Positions 22,313-58,524 of a stretch of 58,524 bases of DNA are shown piece after piece. The position numbers and the translations under genes were made by a program. The DNA lies in assembly GCF_000002865.3 (NCBI RefSeq), contig NW_001865071.1, forward strand, positions 124,001 to 182,524. Reading direction: 5' to 3'. Each line of letters opens with the position of its first letter. Positions within the stretch are counted from its first letter, which is position 1. The stretch comes from Monosiga brevicollis MX1 (Eukaryota). Under the pieces are notes generated by a model. The model saw only the letters and a list, made by a program, of their open reading frames with translations, was not told the DNA's origin and searched no databases.

Positions 22313-22838
22313 CTAGTCCCGAACACCCAGCCGTTGGCGCACATAGGCGTTGTTGTGGGCCGCCAGCTTGTCTCGTAGAGCCGCCACCTTTTCAAAGGCT
22401 TGTTCAGGTGTCAAGCCTTCCGCCTGAATGCTGCGCACTTGGTCTACGAATGTTGAGAGCAACTGCTCCCCCTCTCGCTGCTCCAGCTTGGCCTTTTTGT
22501 CTGGCGTTGACCCAAGTTCGCCCGTGTTTTCAAAGTCTTCCAGCTCAGCTGCCTTGCGTTTGGCGTCCTGCACGTCCGTGGGTCGTGAGCCAATGAATGA
22601 AAAAACCTCGGATTTCCAACGCCGCCGTGTGCAGAGGAGCCATGGACTCGGGGCGGGCCATGTATGCCCTTTCATACCTCAATCACAGCGGCTGGAAAGT
22701 GCACCATTTCAGCCACATGAATGCCAAAAGATTGATCACAGACACCTAGAAGCCACACACACACACACACACGTGCCAGTGAATCGCGTGAAAAATGTAC
22801 TTCTCTTGCTCGGCTCGCACACAGGCCCAATCTCAAAC

Positions 22839-22872
<34 letters not shown>

Positions 22873-25800
22873 GACACGCACCTGGTTTGACTTTGTAAAG
22901 CAGCGTGAGCTCGTTGTTGGAAGTCAAAGCATCCACATGTAGATTGACAACGCTTGGCAATTCGTCTGCGAGTGCCGTCAGCTCGTGGAAGTGCGTCGCA
23001 AAAAGGCAAAACGCCCCAATGGTCTTGGCAATGTGCCTACAACCCCCGCATGTCGTCACGCACTCGTCAACTCAGCACCATCCGATGGTCAAACCAGTAT
23101 GCTGTAAAAGGAGCGCCAGGACGTACTCTGAAATAGCCCAGGCTAGCCCAAAGCCATCGTAAGTGGATGTGCCACGGCCCAGCTCGTCCACGATAATGAG
23201 TGAGTTACGGCTCGCGGCTGACAAAATGCTTGCAGTTTCCAGCATCTCTGCCATAAATGTTGAGATGCCCTAAACAGACATCCAAGTCCCCAAATTGACA
23301 TTAGATTTCGAGCGCAGACGCGATTGAGCCTTGCCGCAGCCTGCGCTGTCACTCATTGCGTGAAGCTAGGCAGACAGGCCATGCCTGCTCCTTGGCCAAG
23401 TTGCCAACTTGCCTTGAGCTGACTGTCGCCAGCACCCACGCGGGCCAGAACGGCATCCACCACCGCAATCTCGGCCGTGTTTGCTGGAACAAAGCAGCCA
23501 ATCTGTGCCATCAAGACTGCCATGCCAATCTACGAGCGCGCAAGAAAAAGTGCAAAGCCGAAATGATCATCTGCCGTTCGGCTCGACGAGCTATTTGCCA
23601 AACAAAACTGAGCAACGTGGCCAAACCTGTCGAATGTAGGTCGATTTACCGCCCATGTTGGGCCCGGTGATGATTTGAAACTCGCCGTCCTCTCGACGCA
23701 AGTCCACGTCATTGGGGATGAATGCCAATTCGTCTTGCACCTCCAGGCAGGGATGGCGGCAGGCCTTCAAGGTGATGTTGCCTTCCCCTGCACGTCAAAT
23801 CAAATGAGTCCCATTTGAGGTTAGAAAAGAGAGAAACAGAGACCGCGAAAAGGGAAATTAAGAGCACCCGCCTTCGCCGCAAGTGTGGCTCGGGTGCACG
23901 CACACCCTGCCGACGCACTTACCCATGGCATGCATGACGGGGCGCACATAAGGTACGGGAGCCCGCAGCGAGGCGGTGGCCAAAGACAAGAAGACGTCCT
24001 GAAGCATGAACCGCAGCGGTGGACGTGATGTTAATGGCTGCCTGTCCTCAGGACACTGCATCAGGCACAAAATGAGAGTTTAGCTGACACGCACCAAAAC
24101 TGCGATGACGGCATTCAGCTCTTCCATGGGTTCCTCGTAGCCGGATGCAATGCCTGCAAGCCCGCACGGACATCACCAAGTCAGCGGGAGCCGCGTTGCA
24201 GCGAAAAAGAAACGGTTGACGAGGTTTGGGTGCAGGCTTCCCAATGAGAAGGCGCGTACCAATCACTTTAGCGGCCACCTCGGCCTGAATTTCTGCGTAG
24301 CGGTCATGTTGTGCTTGCCGGGCTGATGTCCCAAGAAAAGAAACAAAAACCCCTCGGTCAGCGAAAAATGTTCTGGCAGCTCATCCTGCTTGGGGTGACG
24401 GCCCTCACCTTCGTTGAGACGCGACAGGCGCTTGTTTGTAAACTTAATCCCGTTCTTTTGCGTTTCAATGGTGGTGTAGGCCTTGTTGTTACGCAGCAGC
24501 TGTCATGTTCACCCAGGGATGAGCTGCGGCCCTCGACCAGGAACATGGCAGATGACTGATGCGAGGCAGCTCGACAAGGTGACGAGACTCACCTTATCAT
24601 ATGCCCGTGTGACGCGAAAGAGATACTGCTTGCTCTTCGCGTCTTGCTCACACTTGAGGCTCTTGCCATACTCGAGGTTTAGGTCCTCTGCTGCCTCTTC
24701 GCAGGCCGAGGTGATTTCCTCTTCAATCGTATCGATGGCCTCGCGGGTCTTCTGCATGTCTTCATTGAACGTTGGTTTGATAAAGTAATTTTGATGGTCG
24801 GCTTGCTCCAGATCAATCGTGCGCTCAACCAACTCGAGGTATTTTTCAAAGTCCTAACACCGCGACGTGGAGATACGCCCGTGAGTGGGGCCCACGCGCA
24901 GACCAAGTGACGTTCTACCTCCGACCCTTGTCTTGAAATTCTCGTTGCGACTGAGACTCACCTCGAACAGAGTAGTAAAATCCTCCAAAAATTGTTTGTG
25001 CAAGAGGGTGGCATGGGTGCCTTCAAAATCCTGGAGGTGCTCAATCAAATCAGGCCTGCATCGAGAAGGACAGCGGGCAGGGGGGGTGGTGAGATTGCAG
25101 ATCACGCGTAGATGCATGCCAGGTGCGCTCAACGCAACATCGACGCACAAGCGCTTGACGGCCATGTAGACAGACACCACGTCTTGCAGGCGAGCCCGTT
25201 GGCGAGCAAACTTCTTGGACAGTCGGCTGAGATCTGGCATCTTCTTCAAAGCAGTTTCCTATGTGTGAAAGCCCGACGGGGGAGCACGTGCCATGAGACT
25301 CGGCCAGCGATCAGTGCCGGCGTCGCAAAATGGCAGGAACAAAACAGGTCGTTGTCCTTTGCCCTGCAGGTTGGCTTTGAACTGCCTCGACCGTAGTCTG
25401 CGCAGCGGATCATGGGAACTTGCCAAGTTTTGCTTGAGATCATCGGCTTCAATAAAGCACTCAACCAAGTCGTGGCGCTCACGGATGCGATTGACGTCAA
25501 GGAGGGGTTGCTTCAACCACTGGTATAGCAGACGCTGTCCCTGGAGCGTCTTGCAGTGATTGAGAAGTCCAAAGAGTGAGTGTGACTTTGTGCTGTGGGG
25601 ACCGGCCGGAAAGACATTCAAAGCACGCATGGCTGCGCTGTCCAATCGCATGTACTGCACCAAAGCCCACATCGCATGTTGTTGTTGTTGTTGTTTTTTG
25701 TTTTTTGACCCGGTGATCGACGAGATGCAAGTCCAATAGAAATCACAGCGGAGTGAAATTACGTGACGCTTGAATGAACCGGAGTAGCAAGAGTGCATGA

Positions 25801-26076
25801 CCGGCCATGACGAAAGTGGGGAGCATACCTGGGTAAAGTTGAAGGTACTGAGACGAAACTTGTTTGTGTTGGCGTCATCGGCGAGAAGATCCAGATAGTG
25901 GATGACGCAGCACAAGGCAGCCATGGCAGCCTTTTCGTCCACCTGCGGCAGGGCAGCCGCTTTTTGGTCCTGCGCGAGTTTCAACAAGCGCTCCAAGTCT
26001 TGCACCACATCTCTACGGGGGCGATGCACAGAGGCCGTGCAGACAATGAGCACTCGAGATGTGAAACAAAACAAGA

Positions 26077-26111
<35 letters not shown>

Positions 26112-27375
26112 AAACGCTGATGTTAGGCAGTCGCAGTAAGGGGCATACTTGGCCTGGTAATCAGCCTTGCGTCGTGGTGTCACCATGGCGCCATAGCGCT
26201 CGGAGATCTGGGACAACTATTCATTGAATGAATTCACATGGCGTATAGTCAGGCTAGGTGCGTGGCATGCGTTTGGTAACGACATGGACCAGCAAGGAGA
26301 TCAAAAGGGGTGAACATACCTTGGTAATCAGAGGGTTGTTTTGCTCTGACGGCAACAAGACTTCCTTTGGCCCAACCTGCACCAAAAGAGCCTCAAAGTT
26401 GTTGAACTGGGCAGTGTCAGGAAATTGGCACACTCCAAAGCTGGCCTGGGCAGTGTCACAAAATGCAACGCCAACCAGCTATGGAACCCAGGTGATTGCA
26501 ATACAGAATCAGCAGGCATGCAGTTCCCGCCTCCTGCGAACAACTTGTGGAATGGACCGTGCGATTGCAAATCAGATGCGCGCAAACCTGATCATTGCCG
26601 CTTCCTTGCAGGGTGACAGCCAGAACGATGGATGACTGAACCAGATCGCTGTTGTACAGAATGTCCTGAAAGGCCTGGGTGTTGCCCGGAGAGGCCTGGA
26701 GCAGAGGCGGTAAGGGTCACCCGAAGCACTAGCACGAGGCCGAAGGAGGAAGATCGAAGAAGGGTTTGCCCACCTTCTTGGTCACGGCCCATTGGTGGGA
26801 TTTGCCCGAGCTACTGAAGACCTCGACGCGGTAGCGGCGCTGCAACAGCAGATCACGGATGGTCGTCTCAAAGAGCATCTGGTTCATGCTGCAGGACGGC
26901 AATTTTTTGGCTAGCAAGATCAAACAAGGTCGAGGTGAGCCCTCGTCAGGCAGGCGTCGAGGAGGGAGTGCGGCTGGGCTGCTGCTCAAGCGTACCGCCG
27001 TAGTATTTGAGCACGCCCTGGGATTTGAAGATGTTCTTGGCCGCGTACAGAGCATCGTCGCCGTGCAAAGTGTAGTAGTCCTACGGTGAGTCGGCATCGA
27101 GCACCACGACCGAACCGGCTGAGCAACCCCGACTCGAATCCCGCAGGGCCGGAGACGGTGCCCGAATGGAGCATAAATCCCACAGCCAAAACTCACGCCG
27201 CGATCAAAGAAGCGGATGCATGTGGCTGGCTTGGCAGGCAACCGCTCGTAGGCCGCACAAAAACCGCTCTCTTCTGCATTGACACCCAGCACACGCCGAC
27301 ACAGCCAATAGAGGTTGAGAAGGCGCCATGGAGCCAGGATAGCGATACCAACCACCATCATTCCACCTTACCCAT
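22313..27375 (-). CDS. MSH2: DNA mismatch repair protein MSH2; multi-exon, start tentative
   Basis: Motifs [82 protein letters not shown] and [10 protein letters not shown]. Confidence 0.96.
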
Positions 27376-27750: not shown

Positions 27751-30700
27751 ATGGCGACAGGTGAGTGATGGGTGAGCGTGTCGGGCTGAGCATGTGCTGG
27801 GTCGAGCAGATGAGCAGACATGAACTTGCCGGGATGAGATGTTGCTCGCGATTCCTTTGGTTGTCTGGATCAGGCTCATCATGCGGCTGTTGATTAGACG
27901 TGGTCGTGGCACGCCCGAATCAGGCCACCGCAGCCCCGACTTCAACATTGATGGGACCTCGGCAACAGCTCCTCACGCGCCGTGGCCGGTTGCAGCGTGC
28001 AGTCCATGGCGAACCCACCGCTGCGCAGGCAGCACCTGCTCACTACACGGCCAACGAAGTTTCAAACCAGGTCACCCAGGTCATGGGCACGTACCTGCGC
28101 GACTGGTCTGAGCGACAGCAAGAGCAACAAACTCGCCTCCTGGATCAACAGCGCATGCTCCTTCAGGAGACGCAGAGCCAGCTCGATCGATCGCTCAAAG
28201 CGAGCGAGGGTCGGCTCGCCCAAGGAATCGTCGTCCACACTCATGCCCAGCAGCCGGGCGCCTCGACACTTCCCCAATACGCCTCAAAGTCGTCCCCACA
28301 TGCACCCCACCCACACCACCACACACCCTCCCTGCGCTGCTCAGCAACAGGAACCCGCTGCCGCGGCCGCGGAGGGAGCTGTCGCCACTCCAGCCACCGT
28401 GAGAATCGGGCTCACCTGACCGCAGCCCCCTCTGCGCCTGCCTTCGCCTCTTCTTCCTCGTCTTTAGACCGCCTTGTCCAGGTCTGTCCATGTTCCGCAA
28501 TGAATGGGACCCGAAACACCTATTGATTTGCGCGTCCCTCTCATGCCACTGTTTTGCTTTACTTATTTTTTATTTTTTATTTTTTATTTTTTCTTGCTAA
28601 ATTCTCTACCCATCCTTGTTTTTGTTGAATGCTGCTGTGGCATCACTGTCGTAGACGGCTGCAAGTCTGCGGGATGAACTTGCTCAATTGCGTGGCCATA
28701 CTGATCACCAGTTTGGGGCTCTGCGTCGCACACCCGCCCCTCTCGACCGCTACCTCGCTCCGCAATCCAAGTCGCCCCCCGTGTCCAACACATACACAAC
28801 GCCGCGACGAGCCCCAGGCCAGGATGGCATGGTGTCTGAGGCTGAGGCCCAGCTGGCTGCCGCACGCCGGCAGCAAGAGGAGCTCTCGACCCGCCTGGCC
28901 CTCTTTGATTCGCAGATGGATATGGAAGATGCTCTCTTGGATGTCTTTGGACCAGCTCACGATGAGGAGACAGACCAAGCCGCCATTCGCCGCTCTGTCA
29001 TGGATGCAATGCGCCGTGCTCGTGCACAAGTGCATTGGGAACAAGCTGGTCTCCCCTTACCCACTTCCTCTGAGAGTGAGACGGGCAGCAGCATTGCTCA
29101 TGCCCAACGCAAGTTTTCGCCCCGCCCAGGAACAAAGCTTTACCACCCTGACAAACACTCTACGGAGCCACCTGGCCCACCTTCTGACCCACCAAAAGCT
29201 TCACCATCTCGGAATCCCAATCCAAGGAAGCGACGCGCCTTGCCGCACGAAATAGGCATCCATGGCCCCACTGCAGCCCCTTTCCGCGCGACCCGTGCCT
29301 CGCAACTTCGTGCCGAAGCAAATCGCCAACGTGCCACTCAGGAATCAAGTCGCGCACAAAAGCCACGCCGCCAACCAAGCACAAGGGTAGAGCCCAAATC
29401 TCGCGCTCCCGTTCCCTCCGCCCCCATCGATCCACCCCGAGCAACGCCGCCCCCTGTTGAAGCCAGTCCACCTACAGCACCCGCCGCACCCGCCGCACCG
29501 TGGGCTCCAGAGGTACACGACCAACTCTTGCACGACATCCTTCAACAACTCCGGCCTCCGCCCCCCGAAGAACCCGCAGTTGCGAGTCCTCCTGCGGATG
29601 TGCCTGAGAGAGCAGACATGCCTGAAGCGGCCCTGTCCTCGGACACTGTCCATCCAACTCTGACCTATCAAGCGCCACCCACCACCAGCTGGCAGCCTGC
29701 TGCCATTGGACGGCGTGCTTTGGGCGACGCCGCCCGCTGGACAGCCGCTGCTCCCCCAGATCTCGGCACGGATTGGCATCAAGAGCTGGCCCGAATGACG
29801 GAAGACCACGTGATGGCAGCCGCTCTCTCCGCGGCACACATTTCACGCCTGCCGCCCCCACCGCCCCGTTCTAGCCCAGCTCCAGAGGCTCCCCAAAACT
29901 CGCTTTTGCTTGCTCACTTGCAACCCAAGCAAATCGAGCAGCTAGTGTTGGACGACTTGGTTGCGCTCGCTGGTGCCGAAGCAGCTGCTCTCCGCGCCGA
30001 ACGCGCGCCTCCGTTGCCCGTGGAGTCGCCTGCACCCCCAACACCCCTGCGCAGCACCCCGGACGCGGATGGACTAATCACCGCGCCGACATCGCGGATC
30101 GTCACCCCTACCCCCTCCGAGTCTGATGATGCCTCGGTTGCCCCAGCCACCCCTGTCCCAGAGCCTCAGCCAGAGCCTGTACCCCGTGGGCCCGCGACAG
30201 CTGACATCCAGGTGCAGACCGAGTCGCCAAGGCAGTTGGTGGTGCGAGCTTCGTCACCGGTGGGCTTTGGGCCAGCAAGCCCACAACTGATTGGCACAGC
30301 CATCAGCGAAGCCTCCGAGCCAATTAGCCGCTTGGCTGATGCCACGTTGTCGACGCCGCCCAACTCGCCGCCGTTTAAATCTCACGGCGCGGCCCACCAA
30401 GAAACTCAGACCACGGATCCTATCCAATCTCCCTCCCGGTCCTCGTCAATCGCTGACGTGCTGACCTCGCCGCCAGCCCCAGTGGCATCGACGCCACCGC
30501 CGGACGTGGGCCCCATCACAAACGAGGACGTCACCAGCATAGCTTCGCATCCCTCTAGCGTGAGCATGCACTCCGTTGGTCTCTCCGCGGCCTGGCCCGT
30601 CTCTGGAGGCCACGCGGCAATGAGTCTCCTTTCGGTCGGAGAGGTCTCACTACCCAGCGAGCTCGACTCCTCGCAGGCCAGTCGTGAGCCTGGTCAGTTA

Positions 30701-31174
30701 TCAGCCTCATCAAGTAGCGCCCTTTCTGAACTTTCGCAGGGCGACGAAAGTGCGTGGAGTGAGGGTCAGGTGGGTCAAGAGCCCTGGGCCGCAGCTCATC
30801 AAAATGCCTGGGCTGAGTCTCGCACGAGCGAGGAGCATTCTGATGCTGACTCGAGCTCTCTTGCCCTAAGCGAGGGCCTCCTTTCCTTGGGCGAACTACC
30901 CGTTGCAGCTCCGGTGACGGCCACTTGGTGGCCGGCTGCCCCACAACCACGCCCAGCGCCTCGAACGCCGATGCCGCATCCTGCCAGTGCGCTCGGCTCC
31001 CCGCTCCACTCACCAACAGGACATGTCAGTCCCGCAAACGTGCGCGATTGGTCCGTTCAAGAGACAGAGCATGCGGCGTGGCACGTGCAAGCGCCTTTTG
31101 CCACGGGCCAACGATCATCACCCGTGGCCCATCTGGCCGACCACCTCAGCGAAGATGATGGATCGAGTTTCTAA
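27751..31174 (+). CDS. Probable TALPID3/KIAA0586-like centriolar protein (coiled coil plus long Pro/Ser-rich region); multi-exon with a last exon of about 2.5 kb
   Basis: ATGGCGACAG|gtgagt first exon and an open 828-aa final frame. The segment AEAQLAAARRQQEELSTRL...DQAAIRRSVMDAM recalls the TALPID3 conserved coiled coil (...EKIRIRKTVDEWI). TP-rich tracts and C-terminal LSVGEV, WSEGQV and LSEG motifs follow. Coding status is likely; the identity is tentative. Confidence 0.55.
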
Positions 31175-42052: not shown

Positions 42053-44631
42053 TCACCCTGTCTTGGTGCAGTTGACGAGCGGGGCCGGGGCCGAGCCGGA
42101 CACGGGCGTCCATCCCGCCACTGGTGGCTCAGATTCGTTGGTCGCATCCGCTGCAACATAGGTGTGTGAGCGTGAAGCAAGAGGCAATCAGGGGCGAGCA
42201 AGCCATGCGCAACCAACCGGCATAGAAAATGGTGTGCCCGGAGACGGCAATGTGATACTGGTTCTCATATTGATAAATGGACACGCCGTTGGGCCCGTCG
42301 AAGGCGCTACCATTTTTGGTATACACGCCATTCACAGTGCTTGAGCCGGCTTTGGAGAGAGTATACTCGGTGCAGCCCGGTGGGGCTGGCTGAGGCGTTG
42401 GGGGCAACGGTGCTTCACAGGACGAGCGGAAGGGATAGTGATAAGGCACACCATGATCCAAAAGGATGTCCTGGATCGCTGAGACGTTCACGTCGTGTAG
42501 AGCCTGGTTGTTGTTGTTAAGAGCAATGTGAATCGCCGCACCCGAGGCCTCACCCATCCGCCACAGCGTGGGCTCGACGCGAATAGAAGCAAACGTCACG
42601 TGGCTGGTGCTGGGGGTGTTGGGGCTTAGAGCGTTGGTGATTTCTGCACGCTTGGGCAGCAGCAAATAGTAAGGCAGCTCAAACCAAAACGCGCCGCCCA
42701 TGCTGGGCGAGGTCAATCCTTCGTTGTAGGCTTTCTTGCGTGATGTATTGGTGTCATCCACAACGGCAGTCCGCTGCATCTCGTGGATGTCGATCCCCCA
42801 GACAGCGAGGCCGATGCTGTCATTGCGGCAATTCTCTGCCGAAGCCTCGACGCGATCATTCTGCACATACACCTGGTCACCTACGAGCCGGCGAGCCTCC
42901 CGTACATACCTGACCATTGCAAGACAAGTTGGTATGGTCCATCGAAGGCGCAAAAAGAGGGTAGTGCAGCGATGAGCGCGGCTTTGCGATGCAGAGAACG
43001 AGGGGCGTGTGTGCGCAGTAGATCGGCGCTGAAAGCCGGGGACACGCACAGTTGTGGGGGAAAATGGCCGTTCTCGGGCCACTCGTCCTTGCACAAGCCC
43101 ATGTTGTCAAACTGTTCCTTTCGCACGTCAGCAGGCACATTGGCATCCGGATCGGCAAACCAGAAATACATGATTCCTTGCACGTAGTACTTGATCAAGT
43201 CATAAATGGCCCGACGCTGGGCGCGGGTGCCGTTAACGTAGCCGTACTCGAGACCCGGCGCATCAATTCCGACGGGCCCCGAGCCGCAGCTGCATGTCAG
43301 ATGAGGGGGTACACAGATGTGAAGAAGACAGTTGGGTCAGGAGAAGAGGCAGCGCTTTGCGGGCGCCGACACGGGGCTAGAGTGAGGGTCAAAAAAATGC
43401 TTGCACGTACCAGGCATCGCGCTTGTTGTTTGGAGGGTAGGCCGAGTAAGGCAGGTTGCCCCAGGGCAAGCGCAAAGACTTCTTGGCGGCCAATTCGCCG
43501 GCTAGGAAGCGACGGGCAATTTCAAAGTCAGATGTGTTGTAGCCGTCGGGGCGTGGAACAGGCACCTATGGGACGAGTGGGACATCGGCATCATGCACGA
43601 GGATGAACTGTTGAATGAGTTGAGACAGAGGAAATGATACGCTGGGGGGGGCGACCGTGCTCTAGTCAGAGGCGGTTCCGTGCTGGGTATGTGTAGCAGC
43701 GGAAGCAGCTGTGACCATCTTGGCTGACGAACCTGGTTATCGGGATCGAGACTGAGGCAGGCACGAAATGAATAGGCCATGACGTGATGATCTGCTTGGC
43801 CCAGATGAGTGCGAGGATCGGGGCCATTGCGCAAAAAGGAGAGCAGCGAGCCGTCATTCCACTCGGGATCAACGTAAACGTCAAACTAAGCCAAAGCGCG
43901 GTGTGGTGGTGTGGCCGGAGCAGATAAGCAGGCCCGGGGTGAGATGGGGTGGGACCCAGTGTCTGCTACCAGGCTTCAAGGTGTTTCATGCGGGATCATA
44001 CCTGGGCCTGCGAGCTGTCTGTTACACCGGCATACGATTCATTGTAAGTGTCGCGGGATTCACGGCCAAAAGTCATGGAGGCGCCGGCATAGGCCATCAA
44101 ATCACCCTCGTAGGAGGCATCCACGAAATATTGGGCGCGCCAAGTGACGGCAGATCCACCCGTGTTGGTATCATCGGTTGAAATGGCAGTGATGCGGGCA
44201 CCGTCCATGGCGACACCGCCATCTTCGAGGATGGAGGTGTTCATGTAGAGATGAATGTTCTTCCACTGGCGAATCATGGTGAGAAAGTTGCTGTGTCCCA
44301 CGTGATTGTCTGGTTGCCAGACAGGCTCGGAGGAGTTATAATAGCGGGCGTTGAGCATGCCCCAGACGAGTTCGTTGTCGCTCATTTCCTCGGCATAACG
44401 GTGGTCGCGCAGGCCGATGCCTCCGGGCGAGGCCATGCCGCCGACGTAGCCAGAGGGCTCAAGCACGGCGATCGAGACGGTGGAGGAGAGATTCGCCAGC
44501 ATAAAGGCCGCGCCCAGGCCTGCGGGTGTGGCCGAGTAAATCACGACGTCGTACACATTGTCGCTCTGGCCCAGACTGGCCAGTGACAGCATCAACGCCC
44601 CCCAGAAAAGGTGCCCGCTCACGGCCCGCAT
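42053..44631 (-). CDS. Secreted bacterial-type FAD-dependent oxidoreductase (FAD_oxidored/PF12831-like) with a small C-terminal domain; multi-exon
   Basis: Signal peptide followed by YDVVIYSATPAG, GGMASPGG, FVDASYEGDLMA...TFGRES, GLCKDEW, PPQL|YVREARRLVG and FASIRVEPT. The last exon ends PPVAGWTPVSGSAPAPLVNCTKTG*. Confidence 0.85.
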
Positions 44632-44862
44632 CTTTCACCTTGTGCAAGAACCAACAGGACGCCGACGACCCTGATCCTAAAAAGCAGCGACACCCACCCG
44701 AGAGAAGAATCCTCAGTCCATAACAAGCCAACTCGCACACTGCTGTCTCTCCCCTCCGACCCCCTCCCGCGCTGTGTGTCCTCTGCCCCCCTTCTCCCCG
44801 CTCGACGCACATCTCTGACCAGCGTCCTTGCGATCGCCATCCCTGCGCCACTGACCGTCTGC

Positions 44863-46657: not shown

Positions 46658-47062
46658 TTAGTGTGCGTCGGCGTGACAGACAATCATGTAGGAGCGCGCG
46701 TCGTCATCGTCTTCAACGCTGTAGCATTCGCCAACGACCTGATGGGTAATGCGTCGACGGGGGTGGCCGGAGCAGTCGTGGCTAGTGTAGGCTTCCATGC
46801 CAACGACGATGCCGGCGCGGCAGGCAGTGGCGTTGGAAAACTGGAAGAAGGAATGGTTTGGGTCACGGTCGTAGCCGACGATTTGCATGTTGGGCTCGCA
46901 CTGATTGAAGGCGTCGCTCAGGATTTGGATTTGGTAGCCATTGGGGCGGTGGCACCAGTTGTCATCAAACTCGATGTAGTGCAGACCAGCGGCAGTCGGC
47001 AAGGTACAAGCCACCAGCAGCACCAGCACCAGAAGGACCTTGAACGTGGGAGTGGCAGCCAT
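46658..47062 (-). CDS. Small intronless secreted Cys-rich protein, 134 aa, unknown function
   Basis: Clear signal peptide (KVLLVLVLLVACTLPTAAG), 6 Cys in the mature part and strongly C/G-ending codons. Confidence 0.75.
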   Translation of the reverse strand: MAATPTFKVLLVLVLLVACTLPTAAGLHYIEFDDNWCHRPNGYQIQILSDAFNQCEPNMQIVGYDRDPNHSFFQFSNATACRAGIVVGMEAYTSHDCSGHPRRRITHQVVGECYSVEDDDDARSYMIVCHADAH

Positions 47063-47679
47063 GATGGTTGACTGAAGCACCACGATGGAGATGGACGAAA
47101 AGGGGGTGGACAGACAGAGCGTCGAACCAACAGTGACTGGAAAAGGAACGGCAGCGTCAATCGCCGGAGGAAGGGGCGCGCGGATGTACAAGGAAGGTTG
47201 AGCGTTGAAAGTGCAAGTGGGTAACGAGATGACGCCTCAGACCACCCAAGCTGAGGGGAAAAAGGTCATCGTTCCTCGGACTCGAGTTGTCGCGTCTTGC
47301 CAAAGCATCGATACGCCGCTCTCCACTTGACCACGCTCACCTTACAACGTGACACTTGACCCCTTCAAGTCGTCACCTGTTGCCCCGAACCCCACACGCA
47401 CACTTCTAGGCCCAACGCCCACGAGAAGCATGGTACAAGTACAACAGCTGCAGCGCGAGCTTGGGCATGGGCGTCGTCTGCACCCACTTGTGTTATCACA
47501 TTTTTGCTTAAGGGTTTGAGTCCTTCAAGTCATCAGTGTATGAGAGTCATGTCATAGTTTGAACGTTGCACCCTACCAAGCGATACAGCACAGCTTCTCG
47601 GGAATTCCACCTTCTTGTTCGAGCACAACAAGCCAACTTTTCATCGTCATGTTGACATCCTTGTTACCACACTTGGCTC

Positions 47680-47770
47680 GCCGTTTACACACTTGCTGAT
47701 GGTGTTGACGCCACTGAACCCTCTGGCACTCACCATTCTTATGCTCGGCGGTGGTGGCGTGCACACACCC
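47680..47770 (-). pseudogene. Degenerate MYND zinc-finger fragment
   Basis: NGECQRVQWRQHHQQVCK matches the second half of MYND (CQxxxWxxHxxxC). The upstream CARHHRRA* is in a different frame and ends in a stop. Confidence 0.45.
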
Positions 47771-48297
47771 CATGTTCAGTGCGGACGTTAATTTGTCAAA
47801 AACCTTGGAGACGAAGAAGCGTGTCAAGCCAAAAAGTATGTTCGAGCCCAGCCAAAACCCACATAGGGGGCCAAGTATGACAAATTAAAATGCCACTCTG
47901 GTCACACTTGAGATTCAGCATTGAGCATGATCTTGTTTTCTGATCCAGACCACGCACCCCACCACATGGTCTGGTCTGGCGCGGCGTGAGCAACAACTTG
48001 TTTTTGTATGGGGGGCAGAGCACGCCTGTGAAGCTAAATGTATTTTACTTCTATTTTCTTGTCTGACATCTGACGGTTAGCAACGCTTGATGATGTTTGC
48101 CCGGCACCCCTGTGTCTGTGTTTGTGCGTGAGTTGTGACTTGTATCATGGGTCTTTGTGTCTTGTGTGTGGTCCCGTGAGCCAAGGGCAGTGCTCATGCC
48201 CTGGGTTGCACCGGCATGCTGCTCTTATTCTTCTCATCACATCCAGCTTGAGCGGTGTACTTGATGAGAGGTGCCGAAACGCTGACAATTGCACGAT

Positions 48298-48303
<6 letters not shown>

Positions 48304-48372
<69 letters not shown>
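48304..48372. repeat. (CA)n microsatellite
   Basis: Directly visible. Confidence 0.97.
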
Positions 48373-48374
<2 letters not shown>

Positions 48375-48434
48375 GATGTCAGTGGGAAGAGTTGTGCACA
48401 AAATAGAGAGTGATAGCATTTACGTGAGAGAGTG

Positions 48435-48498
48435 CCGTCTTGTCGTCTTGACGTCTCGTCGTCTTGTCGTCTTGCCGGGTTGTCGTCTTGACGTCTTG
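48435..48498 (+). repeat. Tandem 8-mer repeat (NCGTCTTG) x8, imperfect
   Basis: ccgtcttg tcgtcttg acgtctcg tcgtcttg tcgtcttg ccgggttg tcgtcttg acgtcttg. Confidence 0.88.
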
Positions 48499-48588
48499 TC
48501 ATCGGGTGAGGATCTGGTCAGTGATTGAGTTGGGAGTACGGGAGGCGCGTCAAGTTATCGGTGCAGTCGTATTGCATGGGCCGGCGGT

Positions 48589-51500
48589 ATGGGTTCGTCG
48601 GTTTCCAAAGAACGGAAGCGGGCTCGCAAAACGCGAAAGACTCGGCAACATGACACAGCACCGATCCCAGCACCGATTGAGACGCCGGGTCACACAACAT
48701 CACCACCGGCAGCAGCACCCCAGGGCGTTGCCCCAGCATCCGCCCAAGTAGCGCCCATAAAGGCCCCCGCACCATCCATCCAACAGGCCCGGGCCTCCGC
48801 GACCCCCAACGCCGTACCAAACGGCCAGGCGACGGCCCACTTGCGGGCCGTTCTGGAAGCGCAAGATCAGGGCTTTCGAGCAGATGCCTATGCCAACAAC
48901 ATTGCTGACATCTCGCCGCTCCGTCCTGCCCTCTCACCCTGGCGGCCTGTTCAAGAGGAGGATTCGACCTCTTTTGACGTGCAACAAGCCCTAGCCAACC
49001 AGCAATACAGGTGCGCTTCCCACCGCCCGCGTGTCGTCAGCGCCATCCCCTGACATCAAAGTCCCTCCCCCGCCAGTTCTGACATCGCGCCTGCCCCCCG
49101 CCCTGGCATCACCGAGCAACAGGCGACTGGTGGACGAAACACTGGTCAAATTTCACGCCAAGTTGGAGGAGAGCCGATCCTCTCCCGTAGTTTACGTGTC
49201 CCACGCCTGGCCCTCTCGCCCAGAGGAAGACAGCCTTCTCACTCGCGTCATTGGCCTCATGGACGACCTACGCCTGGCTGGCCTCACCGTGCAAGCCCCC
49301 CTCCTTGACTGGCCCCGTGACCAAGAATTCTCTGCCTTTCTGTCCCAAGCCATCCCTAAGAGCCACGCCTTGATTGCTGTTGGCAGCCCTTCCTATCACG
49401 CCGAGTTTGACCAACCCGAGACCGCCGTTGCCCAGGAGTATGCTAGCGCTCAGGCCCACGACCTCTTGGTCTTGCCTATCGTATTGGCGGGCGGCTTTGC
49501 CCAGGCCATCCCTGCGGCCCTCAGCTCCATCTTGGGCTCCTCCGTTGCCGACAGCGCCAGCTACTGCGAGTTTCTGCCAGCCTTTGTGGCCTCCCTCCTT
49601 CACATGAACCCCACTGAGAGCGCCCCGCTCCTGGAAGCCCATGCCGAGAGCTTCCGTGCCCTCAAACACTCCCTCCAACAAGATAACCTTGCCAATGTTG
49701 ACGCTGCACAATTCAAGCGCGTCTATGACGAACAACGAGAATGCGATCGCCTCCGCGAAACCGTTCTCAAGAGCAACTTGGATCGCAAGCAACGCCTCTT
49801 CCTTGACCGCGGCCTCCAGGTTCAGAGCAACCGCGTGACCGAGGTTGCCATCCGCAAGCTGGCCCCACCTTTGGATGCCCCGTCTCCCTCACAAGATCTG
49901 CAGCTGCACTCTGGCACCCCGTTGAGTGCAGCACTTCCGCCCTTCTTGCAAGGCAGCCAGCTCTGCTGGCTGCTTCATGGCTCCACCGCTCTCGTGGCCC
50001 AAGCCACTGCCATTCTCCATAACTGTCTCTGGAAAGGATTTGCCGCCCACCGCGACATCTTGCCTTTAGTGGTGGACCTTGCCGCGCTGGAAAACGCCGG
50101 TGAGCACCTCGTGGAGCAATGCCTTTGGCAGCATGGCTACACGCAAGCCGAGCTCGAGACCTTCCAGGCCGAGCACGTTGAAATCGTTCTACTCTTTGTC
50201 AATTGGCAAGCCGATCAACACTGCACCAATCTCTGGTTTCGAAACGCTCTGCACGCTTGGCAAACCCCTGCCGGCCGTCCCCTACGCGCAATCTTTTGCG
50301 TCGATTCGGCCCAGCTCGTGGACCCCTTGCCTGAAGACCTGGCGAACGATGACCTCGCGCTCTACTTCACTCCGGCCGATGACAGCGGCGAACCCCTTCC
50401 AAAGCAATTGTCCATTTCTCGCCTCGACCACTCCCTGCCCGCGCCACCTCAGGACCTTCCTGCGCCTGGCAATGCTCAAAGCAAACTAGCCACTAAAAAC
50501 GCCCCCAAAGCCACAAGCTCCAAAACAACGGCAAAGGCCGCCAACGCGACAAATCAAGCCTCAAATATCGATGCCCTGCGTGCTCGCTGTGGTACAGCCC
50601 TCCATCAGGTTTGATGCTTGGTCAGGTCCTCATGGAGTACATCGACGTATCGCACTCACCCCGCGCTTGCACCTGCTCGCAGACTTACTTATCAGCGAGA
50701 GAAGCCCTCGTGCGTCAACAATTACATGCCCACCTCTCTCGCCTACAAACCACTGTCAACAACCTGGCTCGCCTCGAAGGCACGCGACGCAAGGTTCGCT
50801 TTGTGTATGCAAAATCGGATGTACTTGCTCATCAAGCTACCCCGCTCAGTCTCCTCTCTCCCTCTCCCTCTCTCCCTCTCCCTTTCTCTCGCCTCACAAC
50901 GCAATTGCATACAGGGCTTTATCAGCTATTCATGGCCGCGAGCCAAAAAAGAGCAACAATTTCTACAAGCCCGCTTACAGCGCCTGCGTGAAGACATGCG
51001 GCCCGTCGGGCTTGACGTCAAGCTTGATATCATGGATCTCAAGGTCTCGTATCACGGCTTTGCGCCACCTGTGCCGGCCGACTAGCCTTTTTTGGTGGTT
51101 CTGTTTTGGTTGTAGTTTTTGTTTTTTGTTTTTTCTTCCGAGGGAGTGTTACAGTTGTTGTTCATGTTGCAATGGTCGATGGCAGTTGTTACGCTTTGCT
51201 TTGTCGCAAGCGTACCTCCCATGTCGACCCCGCTGAAACTTTAACAGTTCCCACAGTATGTTAATGATGGCACCTTTTTTGTCATCTGTCCCTCATTGTA
51301 GGTGGGCATGGACATTGATGAATTCATGCGACAAGGCATTGAAGCCTCAGCCGTGGCCTTTGTCATTGGTTCTTCCGACTATTGTCGTCGCGTGCCCGGT
51401 ATGTAGTGACTTCTTTCAGCACACCCTTGCTTCCAAAGGTCCATCAGGCGCTGCCGACTTCACATTGCCTAGAAGCTTATCAACCACATTAAACGCGTGG

Positions 51501-54500
51501 CCCAATGTAGAACCGAGCAACAAGGTCTCATCAGCTGCGCTATCTAAGGAAGTAACGAACGTTGGCAAAGAATACTGCCACATTCGCGAAGCCGCAGAAA
51601 GCCACCGGCTACAGGTGTTCCCATTGTGGTTTGAACACGGCGAGCATGTCGTGCCACTCCGAGCATTTCCCAAAGGCTTCCTGGACGAGCCTTTCCAACC
51701 GGTTCAAGATTGCGAACAATACATCGATGCGTTGGCTGTGCTACCACGCCTCTACGGACATCTTCACCACCTTATCCCCACCGCCCATGGTCCTGCTGTT
51801 GACCCTGAGGTGGCCGCGGCCTTTCAGCAAGCAAGCGAAGTCTACGGCAACCAGTTGCGCGCCATCGACAAGAGCACCACTGTGCGTCACGCTGAGAAGC
51901 TACAGCCAGCTTGTTTCGCGCTCATCCTGCGGCTGGCCCTCACATTTTGACGCCACTGTCTTTGATCGCATAGGCACAAGCTGTGTGGCAGTGGCATTTT
52001 GCTGACTTGCACCGCCGCGCCGAAGCTGAGCGCAAGTCGGTGCCATGTATTGTTGTGGTTGCTTCATGAGCCCGCCTTGTTGGGTTCCAACTGTCGCCCC
52101 ACTCATGCTCCGACCCCCTGCACGCGTGCCCTCATGAATTCCATGTGTAGGTATCAAGAGCACCTTGAAAAGTTCTTGTCGCAGCAATCGCCCGAAGTGC
52201 TTGCTGAGCTCACGGGCTCGGCGGATTCCACGGAAACGCTAATCAGTACCAACGTGATGCAGCTGCGCAACAGCTCGCAGGCCATGCAACCCCACTCGGC
52301 GATCCACAACGATTTAAAGCAATACGTGCCTGGCACCGCTGCCCGAGAAGCAGACCCCAAAAAACCTGAAGATTGCTTCGAGGTATGCGCGCGCACCCAT
52401 GGGTCGCTCCCTGTTTCAGAGCGTGGCGGCCTCTGAACCTTTATTCACATCCCCTCCCGGGCCCTCTTACCTTTAGGCGTTTGCACACTTGATGAAGACG
52501 CTGGATGAGGCACTTTCGTCCGAAGGCAAAGCAGGCTATACCCTTGTCCAAGGTGGTACGGGCTCGGGCAAGTCAGCCCTGCTACGCTACCTTGAGTTCA
52601 CCTTGTGGCAGCGCTACGACCGAGACCCCACCCAACCCGTGCCCTTGTTTGTGTCACTGGCGCTACTCGATGACCCTACCCACGATGCCATTGCTGAAAC
52701 CATGCGTCGCGCCGGCGTTATGGAAACCGCCATCGAGCTTTTGCGTCGCGAGCGCCGTTTCATCTTTCTGCTCGACGGTTTTGACGAGCTCGGACAAGCC
52801 GTCAACTTGCACTCAAGTAATCAGCTCGAACAATGGCAGGCCTACACCATTGTCGGAGCACGTAGTCAGTACCTTCAGTCCCTTTCTGAATACGGCTCCC
52901 TCTTCATCACCGCTGCCAACCCCGAGCTGGACGAGATTTATTTGCAGCCCTTTGACCAGGCCCAGATCAATCTGTACCTTCAGCGCTTCGCCCTCTCCCC
53001 TCAATCGCAATTGGAGGACTGGGAAGCCTATCGTCAGATCATCGACCAAACACCCGGCCTTCGCACATTGGTTGCCACACCATTTTTATTGCGAATCGCC
53101 TGCGTGGCCATTGGTCACCACGAGCTGCGCATCACCAAACCTGATGGTCTGGATCGTAATCTGCGCCGTGGCGATCTCTACGACGCTTTTGTGCGTGTTC
53201 TCCAACGCCGTGAGCTATGGCGCTGCGTGACTCGACGGCTCGTGCCCCTCAGTGTGGAGCTCACGGCCGAGCTTGGTGCTCTGGACGAAGCCCTGGCCTT
53301 GCATCTCTTCAGCACTCGCCGCGTCACGACCTCACTGCGAGCCACGGCCATGGATAAACTCAAGGTTGGTGTACATGGGCAAACACGCACCTCCACGCAT
53401 CTCTTACTCTGGCGCATTAGTGTTTATCATGTCTGCCTCGTGTTCCATTTGCCTCGCCAACGGTAGATCCTGATCGATGGATCCCCTCTTCGAGTCACGG
53501 GAGGAGGGCCAGCCCATTTTGAGGCCACGTTTGTTCACAAGGTAGAACCCAAAGCTGGAAGATGTGGAATTGGAGTGAACAGCGTTGTGGTTTCGACGTC
53601 TAGGCGGTGGAAAACTCGTCGCCAGGTGCGACTTCAGCACCTCCTGACACTTCTTGGTTGCCGCTTCTGTCTGTCTGTCTACCTATTGCAGTCTGTTCTG
53701 GAATACGAAGTGGCCCAGTGTATCCTGTTGGTGCTGAAGCACGCCGATTCAGACCTGCTTCGTGCCCTTTTGAGCGTGCGCTCGCTGCTAGAGGAACCCA
53801 ACGTTGTGATGTTTGCAGCCGAGCATCTGCAGGACGACTCGAATGCCCGCGACGCGCTCATGAACCTCATCCTGGCGTCACGTGATGACGCAAGCTTGGG
53901 TCCTGCCGCGGCCAACGCCTTTACGCTCCTCAATGCGGCACGCATGAGTTTTAGCGCCTTGGACCTGACCCGTGTCAGGCTGCCAGGTGCCGACCTGCGC
54001 GCGGCTCTGCTGCATCGCACCGACCTCGAGGTACGTTGCTCATCAAAGTTTTGATCATTTTAATTCTTTGAATCCTTAGCGTTTGTGTGCAGCGTGCTGT
54101 GACTGGACGACGGGTCCCCAATGTGAATTGCTGCACTCTGGCTTAGGGTGCCGACCTGACTGGCGCTTATTTGTCGGATGCCATTCTGCCCGGTGCGTCG
54201 CTGGTGCGAACACAACTGGCTGGTATAACATTTGGACAGAAGCCCGATGTCAACGGCCCCACCTCCGATGTTCATGCGATCGAGGCTCGCTCCGATGGCC
54301 AGGTCTTCACGTATGGCCACGGCGTCGAGCGCTTGACTTGGTCGGTTGCCACCGACGATGCTGGGCACGCGACATTAAAGCTCAATGAACGGCAGGCTCT
54401 GCCCGAACGCGGCGCCATCCAGGACGGCGAGGAGGTGCGTCAGCTCCCCTATGTATGGGGAGCCGACGGACGCACCGTCTTGCGAGCTCTTGATCTGGAG

Positions 54501-56897
54501 CGACTCCAGCTGACGGATCTGGAGGGAGAAGCGCTTTGGACCATCACGGAGGACTCGGCCATCAATTTTGGCTCGAGTTGGCCCTTCTTCAACTCGCTCG
54601 CCGTAGCCAGCGATATGAGCGTGGTCGCATTTATCCGAAAGGATGGTCACCTGCGCGCTTGGCGGCCAGGTGCATCCACCAGTACCCCTTTTATAGACGT
54701 CCACGCCCGGCGCGACCTGTCTGACCTACATGTGAACCTACATGAGAAGGGTACGTTGCTGTTAACCGATACGCGGACCCTTTTTTTTAAAAAAAAGAAA
54801 CCTTTGTGTCATCTCGGCGCACATTTCTCACGACTTGAGTGACTCTCGATTGCTGTGCCCTGTGCAGGCGAGATTGACTTTGTGAGCTTGGCCGTGGCTC
54901 CCAACAACTCGTATTTGGCTTGCTTTCTCAAACCTCTTAGCACACAGGGCTATCCCGACCGTGGCCAACCCGGCCATGTGTATCTTTTTGATCTTCGGGA
55001 GGCATCCCCGGTACGGGTGTTTTGCTTGTGCCGTGCAGTGTCGTCATATATGAGCTCGGCTCGCCGGAAAGAGGCTCACGTGTGTCTCGCGTTCACCGTT
55101 ATTGTTCTGTCCCAGACGCCACGCAACCTACCTGCCCATGCCAAATGGATTGGCAACGTGGCTTGGCTCAAGGAGGGTGCAGAGCTGCTGACCATGTCCC
55201 TTGATAACAGCATCAAGTGTTGGGACGTTGAGTCCGGTGTGTCATTCACTTTGTGTGAGGGTATTGTCAAAGCACACTTTGCCCTCTCACTTGTAACCTA
55301 GCGAACGTGCACGGTCCTAACTGGCCCACTGTGTCTTCTTTCCACTTTCTTTTATTCCTTTTTCGCGCCTCCGTGGCCCAGGTCGCGAGCTGTGGAGCAT
55401 GTCTCCGATCCAAGTTGGGGAGCATCGGCCAGTCTCGATGACTGTGGGGCCGCGTGAGCAACGTATGGTGAGCTGCGATGGGGCTCATGGCTGGAGCTGG
55501 AATCCCAACAACCAGCTGGCCCTGTGGGACATGACGCAGCACCAGCGGTTGACTAAGCTACATGGTCACGAGATTGGAACGATTCATGCCATCCAATTCA
55601 GTGCCGACGGCAGTCTTTTGGCTACTGCCAGCTCAGCCAAGACCGTGTGTGTGTACAACGCCAGCGATGGTCAACTCTTGCACGTCTTGCGTGGTCATGA
55701 AAGTAACGTGCGCCAGGTTGCGTTTGTGGCACCTGGTACGCTGCTATCGGGTGCGGGTGCCTCGCTCAAACTGTGGTCATTGGATGCGGCCTCCAGCACG
55801 CCCCCCATCACCTTCAACCCAAACAACACCCCCTTCTCAGCAACCTCGAACCCATGGAGCCTTCAGTTTACCAACAAGTATTTGGTGGCGACACACAACG
55901 TGCACCGAGGCTGCCTGGCCGCGTGGGATCGAGAGACGGGAGAGCTTGCGCCGGCTCTTCGGGGCGATTGGATCGGCAATGACGTGAGCCGTGGACTGGC
56001 CGTGACGCAAGATGGAGAAGGCGTCTACGTCGGGTTGAACAGCTCGCTTATGCATGTACCCGAACTGCGCCTTCGGGGTGCGGGAGAGATTGTTCGCCTT
56101 ATCAACGTTGAGCGCGGTGGTTGGGGAACCCATCTGCACCACAACCAAATGGCAATCACGTCCGACTATCGCTACTTGGCGGGCACCACGCTCTGGAGCA
56201 CGACTACGCTCATTGACCTGCAGTCGGGTCAGCAGGTCGCCACGCTTCGCGGGCACAAACACGATCATGTGTGGGAGCTGATGTTCAGCCTGGACGGTCG
56301 CTACCTCACGACTACGTCCAGCAACGGGGACTTTATCGTGTATGACGTGGCCAGCCACGCATCGGTGGGATCAGGACCCTTCAAGGGGCAAATTGCCTTC
56401 AATGGCCAGAATGAGGTCGTGCAGGTTGGAGGCAAGGACGAAGGCCTAGCTTTGCGGTACTACTCGTGCAAGGGTGACTTGCTGCGCACTGACAAGCAGT
56501 TTGAAGACGCGACGGCGCTAAGCTTCTTCTACGTCGGAGCACGTGTACGTGCACTGCTTGGCGTGTACCAGGAGGATAAGGACTTGCGCTTGTTGGATTT
56601 GGATACGTTTGAGGTACGTGCGTGGCGGCATGAGCTGGGTTGGCACGATTCGGGTGGCTGTCGTTTTGATTTGTGGTTGTGTTTGTTATGTTTTGGTTTG
56701 TCGTCTGAGTGTTGTATCTGCATGGTGTGTTTTTGTGGTGTTTCTCAACGCATGTGTGTGGTCTTAGGTTGTGGCGGTGATTCGGGGCTTTCACAGCAAT
56801 ATGGAAGGTGTCGTCAGTCCAGACTTGTGCCACTTGGCCGCAACCAAGAAAGGTATGTGCAGGATGGCCGTGCAAACTGCATCTTGGCATCTTGGCA

Positions 56898-56952
<55 letters not shown>

Positions 56953-57205
56953 TACATCCCATGTCACCGCCATTGTGGAAGAACTTGAAGGCAAAACTCG
57001 CATCAAGCTTATGCCACGGGGGATCATTTCCGTAGGGCTGCCCGGTCTGGACGTGTATGCGCTTGACAAGGAGGGAAGCCGGCTGCTCTGGGTGACGCGA
57101 CCAACTTTACAAGTCAACGCAGACACGAACTTCCAGGATTGTCAGGGCTTGCCCACGGATGCGCGCGTACTGATGGAACAAAAGGGCGCCATGCTTAGCC
57201 CTTGA
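48589..57205 (+). CDS. NLR-like STAND protein: TIR, degenerate NACHT, TIR, NACHT, pentapeptide repeats, WD40; multi-exon
   Basis: TIR-like segments VYVSHAW...LIAVGSPSY...VAQEY and GFISYSW...FVIGSSDY...VGKEY. Walker A GGTGSGKS and Walker B FLLDGFDE. Pentapeptide region AANAFTLL...LPGADL...GADLTGAYL. WD repeats GHEIGTIHAIQFSADG, GHESNVRQVAF and GHKHDHVWELMFS. Confidence 0.88.
56899..56949. repeat. (CA)n microsatellite in an intron of the NLR-like gene
   Basis: Directly visible. Confidence 0.95.
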
Positions 57206-57558
57206 GCAAAGGCGTGGCAACGCATCGCGATTGATCGTGTAAAGATGTATAGCATGTCTGGCATGCGTCAGGGTTGATCATCCAAATTCAAAGGTACGAC
57301 GCGAGCAATGTCATGAAAGGCTGCTTATAGCCAGGAAGTGGGAACGAGAGAATCTGGATATCAAATAGCGTGCGCACCACAGCCCTCGGGACTGGTCCAA
57401 CCACACGCAAGACAAGACAAAGGATACACAGGGCAAAAAAATGTGTGACGACAAGGCAGGCCGCGTGCCCGCCCCTAAGGCTCGAGGCTGAGGGCCTGTG
57501 AAGAAGCGTACTCAAAATGATGGGAGCCGCAATTGTTGGGGGGGGGGGGGGGAGCAGT

Positions 57559-58207
57559 TTACGCCAATTGTTGGCGAAGAAGCTGGAAGACCTTCTGCTT
57601 GATCCACTCCTTATCATGGGGCACATAAGTGCGGCTGCCCCCATTGAACACCAAGCAGCTCAAATCGCCTACACAAGAGCGGGTCATCCCCCAGATGAAT
57701 GTGCACAGTGGGCGGGCAGAGTAGGAAGGTAACAAGCACCGTTGGGAGAAAGCGCATCCTCTCGTGTCCTGCTTGCCGCTCTTACCGAGAGCATCGATGA
57801 AAGCATACAGGTCAGACACATCGTAGCTAATCTGCGGCTGGGTTGGGAACATCTCCTTGAGGTGTGTCTCAAACATCTTGCAGACACCTGAGGTGTTGAG
57901 GTGAGCGGCAAAACAACAAGTGTGAGTTGGCTGATCCAGTGACCATGTGCCATAGGCAGCCACCTATGCTTGGCACGAAGAAGAAGCAGAAGGAAGTTTG
58001 AAAAAAAGGAAAAAAAAGGCAGGAGCAGATCCAATAGAACCCACCCTCCATGGCCTGGTTCTGTGACTCGTAGTCACTGTAGGTGCGGCTCGCGGCGGAG
58101 CGGGTGGGCTGAACAAGCAGGATCGTATGCTGCATCAACGAGGGAAAAGAAGGCGATATGAGGCAAGTGCAGCCAACAATAAACTGCATTTGTGAGCACA
58201 CCACCAT
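57559..58207 (-). CDS. ERH: Enhancer of rudimentary homolog; 4 exons, start tentative
   Basis: HTILLVQP...RTYSDYES...MEG|VCKMFETHLK...ISYDVSDLYAFID|DLSCLV...TYVPHDKEWIKQKVFQLLRQQ. Confidence 0.95.
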
Positions 58208-58524
58208 GTCGCCATTGCATGTCAGCCCTTCCATGACCTGCATTGCCGCGGTAGAGCAGCGCAGAGCAGGGCTTGCTGCCATTTCCCAACGGATCGGGGC
58301 TCACTACTCACGCTCATCTTGGCAGGACGAGAAGAGGCGGTCAAGAAACTGATGCGCCATATGTCTTGACCCCCCCGACTGCAAATGTCAGTAAAATCTC
58401 CTCAATGCAGAACGTCAACGATGACAATGTCAATATACCTCTCCTTCATAAAGCATCATACCTCCCAATACAGTGGGGTACCCCCTAACTTTGAACGGAG
58501 GTTTTGGTAATAACACTTGTTCCA

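Follow-up and report, generated by a model that had tools for sequence, protein, structure and literature searches.

Receptors of the nucleotide-binding, leucine-rich repeat type (NLRs) with a NACHT-PPR-WD40 layout have been described from Mortierellomycota in common with Mycoavidus (10.1101/2021.12.02.471044), and a SEFIR-like N-terminal domain has been reported on fungal NACHT-Ank/HEAT/WD40 and Mycoavidus NACHT-WD40 proteins (10.1101/2022.03.16.484565). In bacteria, SEFIR proteins defend against phage (10.1101/2022.05.11.491447), and bacterial SEFIR defense proteins were reported to deplete NAD+ (10.1101/2024.02.11.579819). For choanoflagellates, one survey gives NACHT only with ANK, TPR, WD40 or LRR repeats (PMC3879445), the accessible part of another does not include NACHT in its list of TIR partners (PMC6040629), and a 2026 TIR atlas, in its accessible part, treats SEFIR as an outgroup and discusses choanoflagellates solely in connection with SARM1-like TIRs (PMC13142454). 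Here, we focused on a gene of the choanoflagellate Monosiga brevicollis MX1 at positions 48589..57205 (+) of a 58,524-nucleotide stretch (NCBI RefSeq assembly GCF_000002865.3, contig NW_001865071.1, positions 124,001 to 182,524 of the forward strand; hereafter, the window). It is transcribed as one spliced frame and encodes two SEFIR-like domains of the TIR clan (hereafter, STIR-1 and STIR-2), each followed by a NACHT domain, the first of which appears dead from its motifs, and then pentapeptide and WD40 repeats.

Four public sequencing runs (X1, X3, X4 and X7) were aligned to positions 47000-58524 of the window. Runs X3 and X4 each gave one spliced contig across the gene (7436 and 7461 nt, respectively), with 19 joints in each; the 15 joints listed are identical in the two runs and are all GT..AG. 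The contigs of X1 and X7 carry the same DNA unspliced, with no joints, and the absence of the GT..AG introns from the X3 and X4 contigs is the sole basis for calling these two runs RNA-derived. A 16th coding intron (56853-57035) was derived from the contig piece table and the splice dinucleotides. The joined exons comprise 2188 codons without an internal stop, from an ATG at 48589, which is preceded by an in-frame stop codon, to a stop codon at 57203-57205; the first-pass annotation of this DNA had named exactly this ATG-to-stop span. The locus is a single transcribed, spliced gene with a 2188-codon frame, as had been proposed: the X3 and X4 contigs link 17 exons in one open frame. The 16 introns, all GT..AG, lie at 49011-49122, 50609-50682, 50794-50914, 51044-51301, 51399-51510, 51882-51973, 52036-52150, 52383-52476, 53365-53466, 53542-53691, 54031-54146, 54751-54867, 55011-55115, 55237-55381, 56614-56767 and 56853-57035 (all features of the gene are on the + strand). 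The 5' untranslated region (UTR) extends at least over 48381..48588, given that the spliced contig starts at 48381 in X3 and at 48432 in X4, right after a (CA)n repeat. The 3' UTR (57206..57667) overlaps the 3' end of a convergent gene, and the contigs extend to 57667 and beyond.

Simple repeats are present before the 5' UTR ((CA)n, 48292-48380), in intron 3 (a CT-rich run, 50850-50894) and in intron 16 ((CA)n, 56892-56957), and the contigs of all runs break at these three places. At position 57536, in the overlap of the 3' UTR with the convergent gene, all four runs have G for the T of the window, which is either a strain difference or an assembly error. No paralogs of the gene were detected inside the window (14 high-scoring segment pairs, none outside the gene).

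The encoded protein has the order MG/polybasic N-terminus, STIR-1, dead truncated NACHT, STIR-2, intact NACHT, helical region, pentapeptide repeats and WD40 propellers, based in part on Pfam scans of stop-to-stop open reading frame (ORF) pieces (n = 11) and of the exact exons. All five elements of the effector–STAND–repeat layout proposed by the first-pass annotation (STAND, signal transduction ATPases with numerous domains) were found in the one spliced gene. Exon 1 (48589..49010, aa 1-140) has an MGSSVSK start, KERKRARKTRKTRQ, and then a low-complexity region rich in A/P/Q, and was matched by none of the 164 relatives that we stored. We take the MGSSVSK and polybasic start to fit an N-myristoylation motif with a polybasic membrane anchor. 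No LRR, CARD, PYD or Death families were detected in the Pfam scan of the 11 ORF pieces.

STIR-1 (49181..49603, aa ~161-301, in exon 2) matches Pfam TIR_2 (PF13676) at 28.2 bits, a borderline score given the cut-off of 28. Its AlphaFold2 model (predicted local distance difference test, pLDDT, 74.3; predicted template modeling score 0.72) has alternating strands and helices. Compared with 48,161 chains using VIA-align, the model was matched to the SARM1 TIR with Z 10.5 (root-mean-square deviation 3.4, 120 residues aligned), to Hydra TRR-2 (9.8), MyD88 (9.0), SpbK (9.0) and ThsB (8.9), and also to IL-1RAcP, while the SEFIR structures 3vbc and 5y8f gave Z of 8.4 and 8.3. The best Foldseek matches were SPARTA TIR-APAZ, SARM1, RUN1 and TLR1, with E values from 1.7e-4. 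STIR-2 (50915..51881, aa 674 to ~860) is encoded by exons 4, 5 and 6 (50915-51043, 51302-51398 and 51511-51881), and it is unseen by Pfam because it is split over these exons; no family was detected when exon 4 or exon 6 was scanned alone. The two domains are paralogous by sequence (default BLASTP, E = 2e-12, 26% identity over 188 columns). Exon 4 alone matches the bSEFIR profile of PADLOC (E = 7e-4), while PADLOC returned nothing for exon 5 and only a weak NsnC match for exon 6 (E = 0.048). The nearest relatives of STIR-2 are the stored proteins P0094 (33% identity, E = 1.5e-21) and then P0021, both of which match bSEFIR (2e-8 and 1.6e-10, respectively), as do P0026 and the second copy of the domain in P0015 (range 1.6e-10 to 1.3e-5).

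Profile A1, which combines STIR-1 with the two larger exons of STIR-2 and the N-terminal parts of four relatives, was compared with the PDB, and the bacterial SEFIR structures 5y8f (E = 7e-9) and 5y8e (8e-9) were retrieved, together with a chance-level third match (three matched at E ≤ 10). A Glu column is filled in all six rows of A1 that cover it (AVAQE, NVGKE, PATVE, PATFE, YIYLE) and is aligned to a Glu of 5y8f. TIR-clan NADases have a catalytic Glu in their active site, and this column is the putative catalytic position. Both domains belong to the TIR clan and appear nearest to SEFIR in sequence. The two TIR-like domains reported earlier are thus both present, and STIR-1 has the TIR fold; given the matches to 5y8f and bSEFIR, they are better named SEFIR-like STIR domains than TIR domains.

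The region between the two STIR domains revealed a feature that the first-pass annotation had overlooked. A colinear alignment of 443 columns pairs residues 141-636 with residues 637-1266 at 58 bits (maximum 26.6 in 200 shuffles), and the stretch between STIR-1 and STIR-2 has BLASTP matches to the NACHT domains of 49 of the 164 relatives. The hidden Markov model (HMM) of the family detects a first NACHT at aa 435-524 (E = 1.5e-9), within a degenerate and truncated domain at 49913..50425 (aa ~405-575). In alignment A4, this domain has GSTALVAQ for the Walker A GTGSGKSA, LLFVNWQAD for the Walker B FLLDGFDEL, and an Asp where the sensor-1 Arg is expected, with the N..N..W columns of the family kept, and it stops early, running into a low-complexity linker. 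Its AlphaFold2 model (pLDDT 77.5 overall and >85 over the core) resembles the NTPase folds of ORC/Cdc6, Avs4 and NOD2 in Foldseek. Given the colinear halves and the degenerate NACHT between the STIR domains, the "double TIR" is a duplicated STIR–NACHT module: as read from the sequence, the N-terminal half is a tandem duplication of the whole module, and the NTPase of the first copy is dead. The layout had been called an unusual double TIR; the two domains are real, and what is doubled is the module. Of the 163 family proteins matched by the HMM, 19 have two NACHT modules.

The second NACHT (52477..53364, exon 9, aa 971-1266) had been described as intact, and it is: Pfam NACHT (PF05729) is matched at 42.8 bits (cut-off 26.7), and the Walker A GGTGSGKS and Walker B FLLDGFDE read in the translation fit GxxGxGK[ST] and hhhhDGxDE. 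By profile and motifs, it is a NACHT-clade STAND NTPase. The pentapeptide, WD40 and AANAxTxL elements were likewise recovered. AANAFTLL and the pentapeptide repeats (53926..54254, aa ~1370-1440) span the exon 11/12 junction, so that the repeat is divided between two exons, which score 14.2 and 20.5 bits with Pfam Pentapeptide (cut-off 20.2), and this stretch matches 95 of the 164 relatives, with up to 48% identity. The beta-propeller/WD40 region (54255..57202, aa ~1441-2188, exons 12-17) matches WD40 at 66.1 bits (cut-off 27) in three stretches, with one further repeat in exon 14, and Beta-prop_THOC3 with E = 8.8e-27. The first ~210 residues of the propeller region are too divergent for Pfam; aa 1441-1690 were matched by only 2 of the 164 relatives, and aa 1691-2188 by 79.

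The NACHT exon (52477-53364) was searched with HMMER against 1.84 billion representative proteins, and 1541 relatives were found at E ≤ 1e-3, 36 of them at E ≤ 1e-30. The best matches had 47% identity over 247 residues (a 467-aa protein) and 58% on a 176-aa fragment, the highest identity to the NACHT exon; the product of the gene itself was not found among these representatives. When the NACHT exon was used in a word search ('longer' lengths), three matches were returned, none of them the gene itself, and a search with exon 2 ('near' lengths) returned none at E ≤ 0.01. The MSH2 protein of M. brevicollis MX1 is present in the searched collection. Since nothing matched above 58% although MX1 proteins are present in a sister collection, the public sets searched seem to be without the product of this gene, which may be missing or mis-modeled in public annotation.

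Among the 30 matches looked up, the organisms were Modicella reniformis, Linnemannia elongata, Mycoavidus cysteinexigens and a Candidatus Schekmanbacteria metagenome-assembled genome (MAG), and the rest were metagenome, Logan or NCBI sequences; the only species named among the 10 best were the first three. The bacterial spread of the family rests on metagenome proteins, the one Schekmanbacteria MAG and Mycoavidus. Bacterial NACHT clusters were also nearest by features in the Atlas, which we treat as a lead only. A FastTree phylogeny of 168 NACHT domains was built with 11 near-duplicates and one short fragment omitted and the dead domain kept by exception. The intact NACHT of the gene forms a group with four mostly short proteins (support 97). 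This group is nested in a larger clade of 16 rows (support 98), to which the four proteins sharing the SEFIR-like N-terminus all belong, and the Mortierellaceae and Mycoavidus rows fall outside this clade. The placement of the dead NACHT beside the first NACHT of P0015 was discarded as unreliable, as both are on long branches. The tree is unrooted and mixes bacterial, fungal and other sequences, so that it supports no donor and no direction of transfer.

Judged from these sequence relationships, the core formed by the NACHT, pentapeptide and WD40 regions falls within the family described for Mortierellomycota and Mycoavidus. The likeness to Mortierella and Mycoavidus proteins, which the first-pass annotation had given from recall, is borne out by the NACHT domains (31-34% identity, E 1e-39 to 1e-51, to Modicella KAF9984884.1, Linnemannia KAG0075292.1 and Mycoavidus WP_045363261.1) and by the published account of that family cited above, and the NACHT is followed by the same helical region, AANA/pentapeptide stretch and WD40 repeats. 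The fungal and Mycoavidus proteins differ in their N-terminus, which is an ARM_5 alpha-solenoid in 9 of the 16 top matches scanned (TIR_2 was found in 1 of the 16). No exon ORF of the gene matches ARM_5 in Pfam, and the SEFIR-like domains occupy its place. The host also differs, being a choanoflagellate. With the fungal SEFIR-like–NACHT–(Ank/HEAT/WD40) NLRs, compared by their description, the gene shares a TIR-clan SEFIR-like N-terminus ahead of NACHT and repeats; those are described with one effector and one NACHT, in contrast to the tandem pair found here. The bacterial SEFIR defense protein (bSEFIR/5y8f) has the same type of N-terminal domain. The bSEFIR match is limited to profile positions 37-110 of 412, with the bacterial C-terminal part unmatched here, and the bacterial protein is a single-gene system without a NACHT, pentapeptide or WD40 region.

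The effector–STAND–repeat logic is shared more broadly with plant TIR-NLRs and bacterial Avs/bNACHT proteins. The TIR fold of STIR-1 resembles that of RUN1, RPP1 and ROQ1, and the predicted fold of the dead module resembles Avs4 and NOD2. Plant TIR-NLRs have NB-ARC and LRR, the latter absent from this gene, and animal NLRs carry LRR with CARD, PYD or Death domains, for which the gene has WD40 and SEFIR-like domains instead. The closest counterpart in layout is P0015, a 3500-aa NCBI protein on a 13-kb contig, with the same order of SEFIR-like, short NACHT, SEFIR-like, NACHT and WD40. The kinship is position-wise, from STIR-1 to its first copy (E = 1.7e-8) and from STIR-2 to its second (E = 4.9e-11). 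P0015 differs by a long C-terminal ankyrin array and a first NACHT in which GK of Walker A and DGFD of Walker B are still present. As to whether the architecture was already known, SEFIR-like–NACHT–WD40 is in print for fungi and Mycoavidus (10.1101/2022.03.16.484565), and no description of a TIR/SEFIR–NACHT protein in choanoflagellates was found in the literature searched, which mostly comprised sources other than subscription journals and survey supplements. The tandem module, the choanoflagellate host and the SEFIR-type effectors set this gene apart within an NLR-like family already in print.

What was observed is the anatomy of the gene, its expression and its kinships, and from these we infer a mechanism by analogy with STAND proteins. 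The product is probably a single-chain NLR-like STAND protein, in which oligomerization triggered by a ligand would drive a STIR NADase or scaffolding. The WD40 and pentapeptide end most likely holds the protein in a closed state before ligand binding; the intact NACHT would then oligomerize with ATP and cluster the STIR domains, which would either cleave NAD+ like bacterial SEFIR/TIR effectors or nucleate SEFIR–SEFIR signaling, with defense or cell death as the outcome. Cleavage of NAD+ by the STIR domains is the favored prediction because of their kinship with SEFIR and the conserved Glu. The dead first module would not hydrolyze ATP and may have a structural or regulatory role, probably as a built-in partner or regulator of STIR-2, and the MG/polybasic start may locate the protein on a membrane. 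The gene may have a role in defense, and its ancestry may be bacterial, as the first-pass annotation had proposed.

Several observations weigh against this interpretation. STIR-1 clears the TIR_2 cut-off by just 0.2 bits and has no bSEFIR match, and Pfam SEFIR (PF08357) was matched at E ≤ 0.1 neither by STIR-1 nor by the STIR-2 exons. The TIR-clan status of STIR-2 comes only from its homology to STIR-1 and the exon 4 match, with the exons scanned singly. When the NACHT exon was compared with PADLOC (2023), no Avs or bNACHT match was obtained, and those to PDC-S60 (the best, E = 1e-5), mad8 and PtuA were weak. The contigs prove splicing and continuity of the frame rather than the starts and ends of transcripts, and are compatible with shorter isoforms. 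NACHT–WD40 proteins have non-immune roles too, and animal SEFIR domains are scaffolds, not enzymes.

The main rival is SEFIR–SEFIR scaffolding, by which the SEFIR-like domains would recruit SEFIR/TIR proteins in the manner of IL-17R/Act1 and feed a kinase or transcription pathway without cleaving NAD+. The conserved Glu, present in every covering row at the presumed position of the catalytic Glu of TIR-clan NADases, argues for an enzyme instead, as do the bacterial SEFIR defense proteins reported as NAD+-depleting (10.1101/2024.02.11.579819). The closest solved sequence relative is itself a SEFIR domain that was first proposed as a protein-interaction module, and defense by the bacterial SEFIR protein was abolished in D40A, a mutant of a SEFIR–SEFIR interface (10.1101/2022.05.11.491447); many choanoflagellate TIR proteins are, moreover, fused to kinase, SH2, Ank or Arm domains (PMC6040629). 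On balance, we regard scaffolding without catalysis as rather unlikely. We consider it improbable that the protein, instead of sensing pathogens, switches on cell death in self/non-self recognition or in development, in the manner of the HET-E/NWD NACHT–WD40 proteins of fungi. We know of no evidence for allorecognition in this solitary choanoflagellate, and hypervariable WD40 repeats are not apparent in the single sequence, for which no population comparison was made. In favor of such a switch, P0094, the closest relative of STIR-2, weakly matches the C-terminal propeller of NWD2, fungi employ the same NACHT–WD40 layout in incompatibility, and only a subset of their NLRs is regarded as immune (10.1101/2022.03.16.484565).

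A very improbable alternative is that STIR-1 with the dead NACHT and STIR-2 with NACHT and WD40 are adjacent, separately transcribed genes joined by the assembly. Contigs can fuse neighboring transcripts, those of X3 and X4 do enter the convergent gene downstream, and a low-complexity linker lies between the modules. The 2188 codons run without a stop across 16 spliced junctions, however, splicing of introns 2 and 3 connects the modules in frame in X3 as well as in X4, and a single ORF of P0015 contains the two modules in this order. Beyond the single-chain sensor that we prefer, a more elaborate reading is that a sensor/helper NLR pair was fused in one chain. Module 1, with its nucleotide-blind NACHT, would then inhibit, or obligately pair with, STIR-2 in cis, and STIR-1 and STIR-2 would form an asymmetric NADase or signaling unit on a membrane via N-myristoylation. 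In plants, an inactive RRS1 TIR restrains the RPS4 TIR. Given that P0015 has the same order with position-wise kinship, such a fused pair would be an old, conserved design near animals, possibly from bacteria; we hold this only tentatively and think it quite unlikely.

The convergent gene, tail to tail with the sensor gene, encodes Enhancer-of-rudimentary (ERH, PF01133; 57559-58300, -), and the contigs of X3 and X4 cross the boundary between these two genes, owing either to overlapping 3' ends or to a merge by the assembler. The upstream neighbor (46658-47236, -) has a weak, below-cut-off match to the counting-factor-associated CfaA/B/C family (PF11912, E = 2.8e-5), and the depth of its RNA contig is several times that of the sensor gene contig. 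Farther upstream are a FAD-dependent oxidoreductase (PF12831, in two ORF pieces; 42129-44634) and an Acyl_transf_3 acyltransferase (10992-12218), both on the - strand; these two are ordinary neighbors that give no hint of a defense island. An 839-codon open frame rich in Ala/Pro/Ser (28655-31174, +) has no Pfam family and lies within the most G+C-rich part of the window (0.60). The MSH2 mismatch-repair gene (22316-27274, -) is in at least 14 coding pieces, and its exons have 98-100% identity to MSH2 of M. brevicollis MX1, with S. rosetta next at ~40%, which identifies the host as M. brevicollis or a strain nearly identical to it.

Taken together, the gene is an expressed fusion of TIR-clan effectors with NACHT in choanoflagellates, with a core otherwise known from bacteria and early-diverging fungi. 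Its importance is tempered by the fact that this class of architecture has already been published for fungi and Mycoavidus and that the function here is inferred. Such a fusion in a choanoflagellate allows a direct test of whether NAD+-depleting immunity of the bacterial type is at work in a model organism closely related to animals, and the dead module beside a live one likewise makes the role of a catalytically dead STAND module open to experiment.

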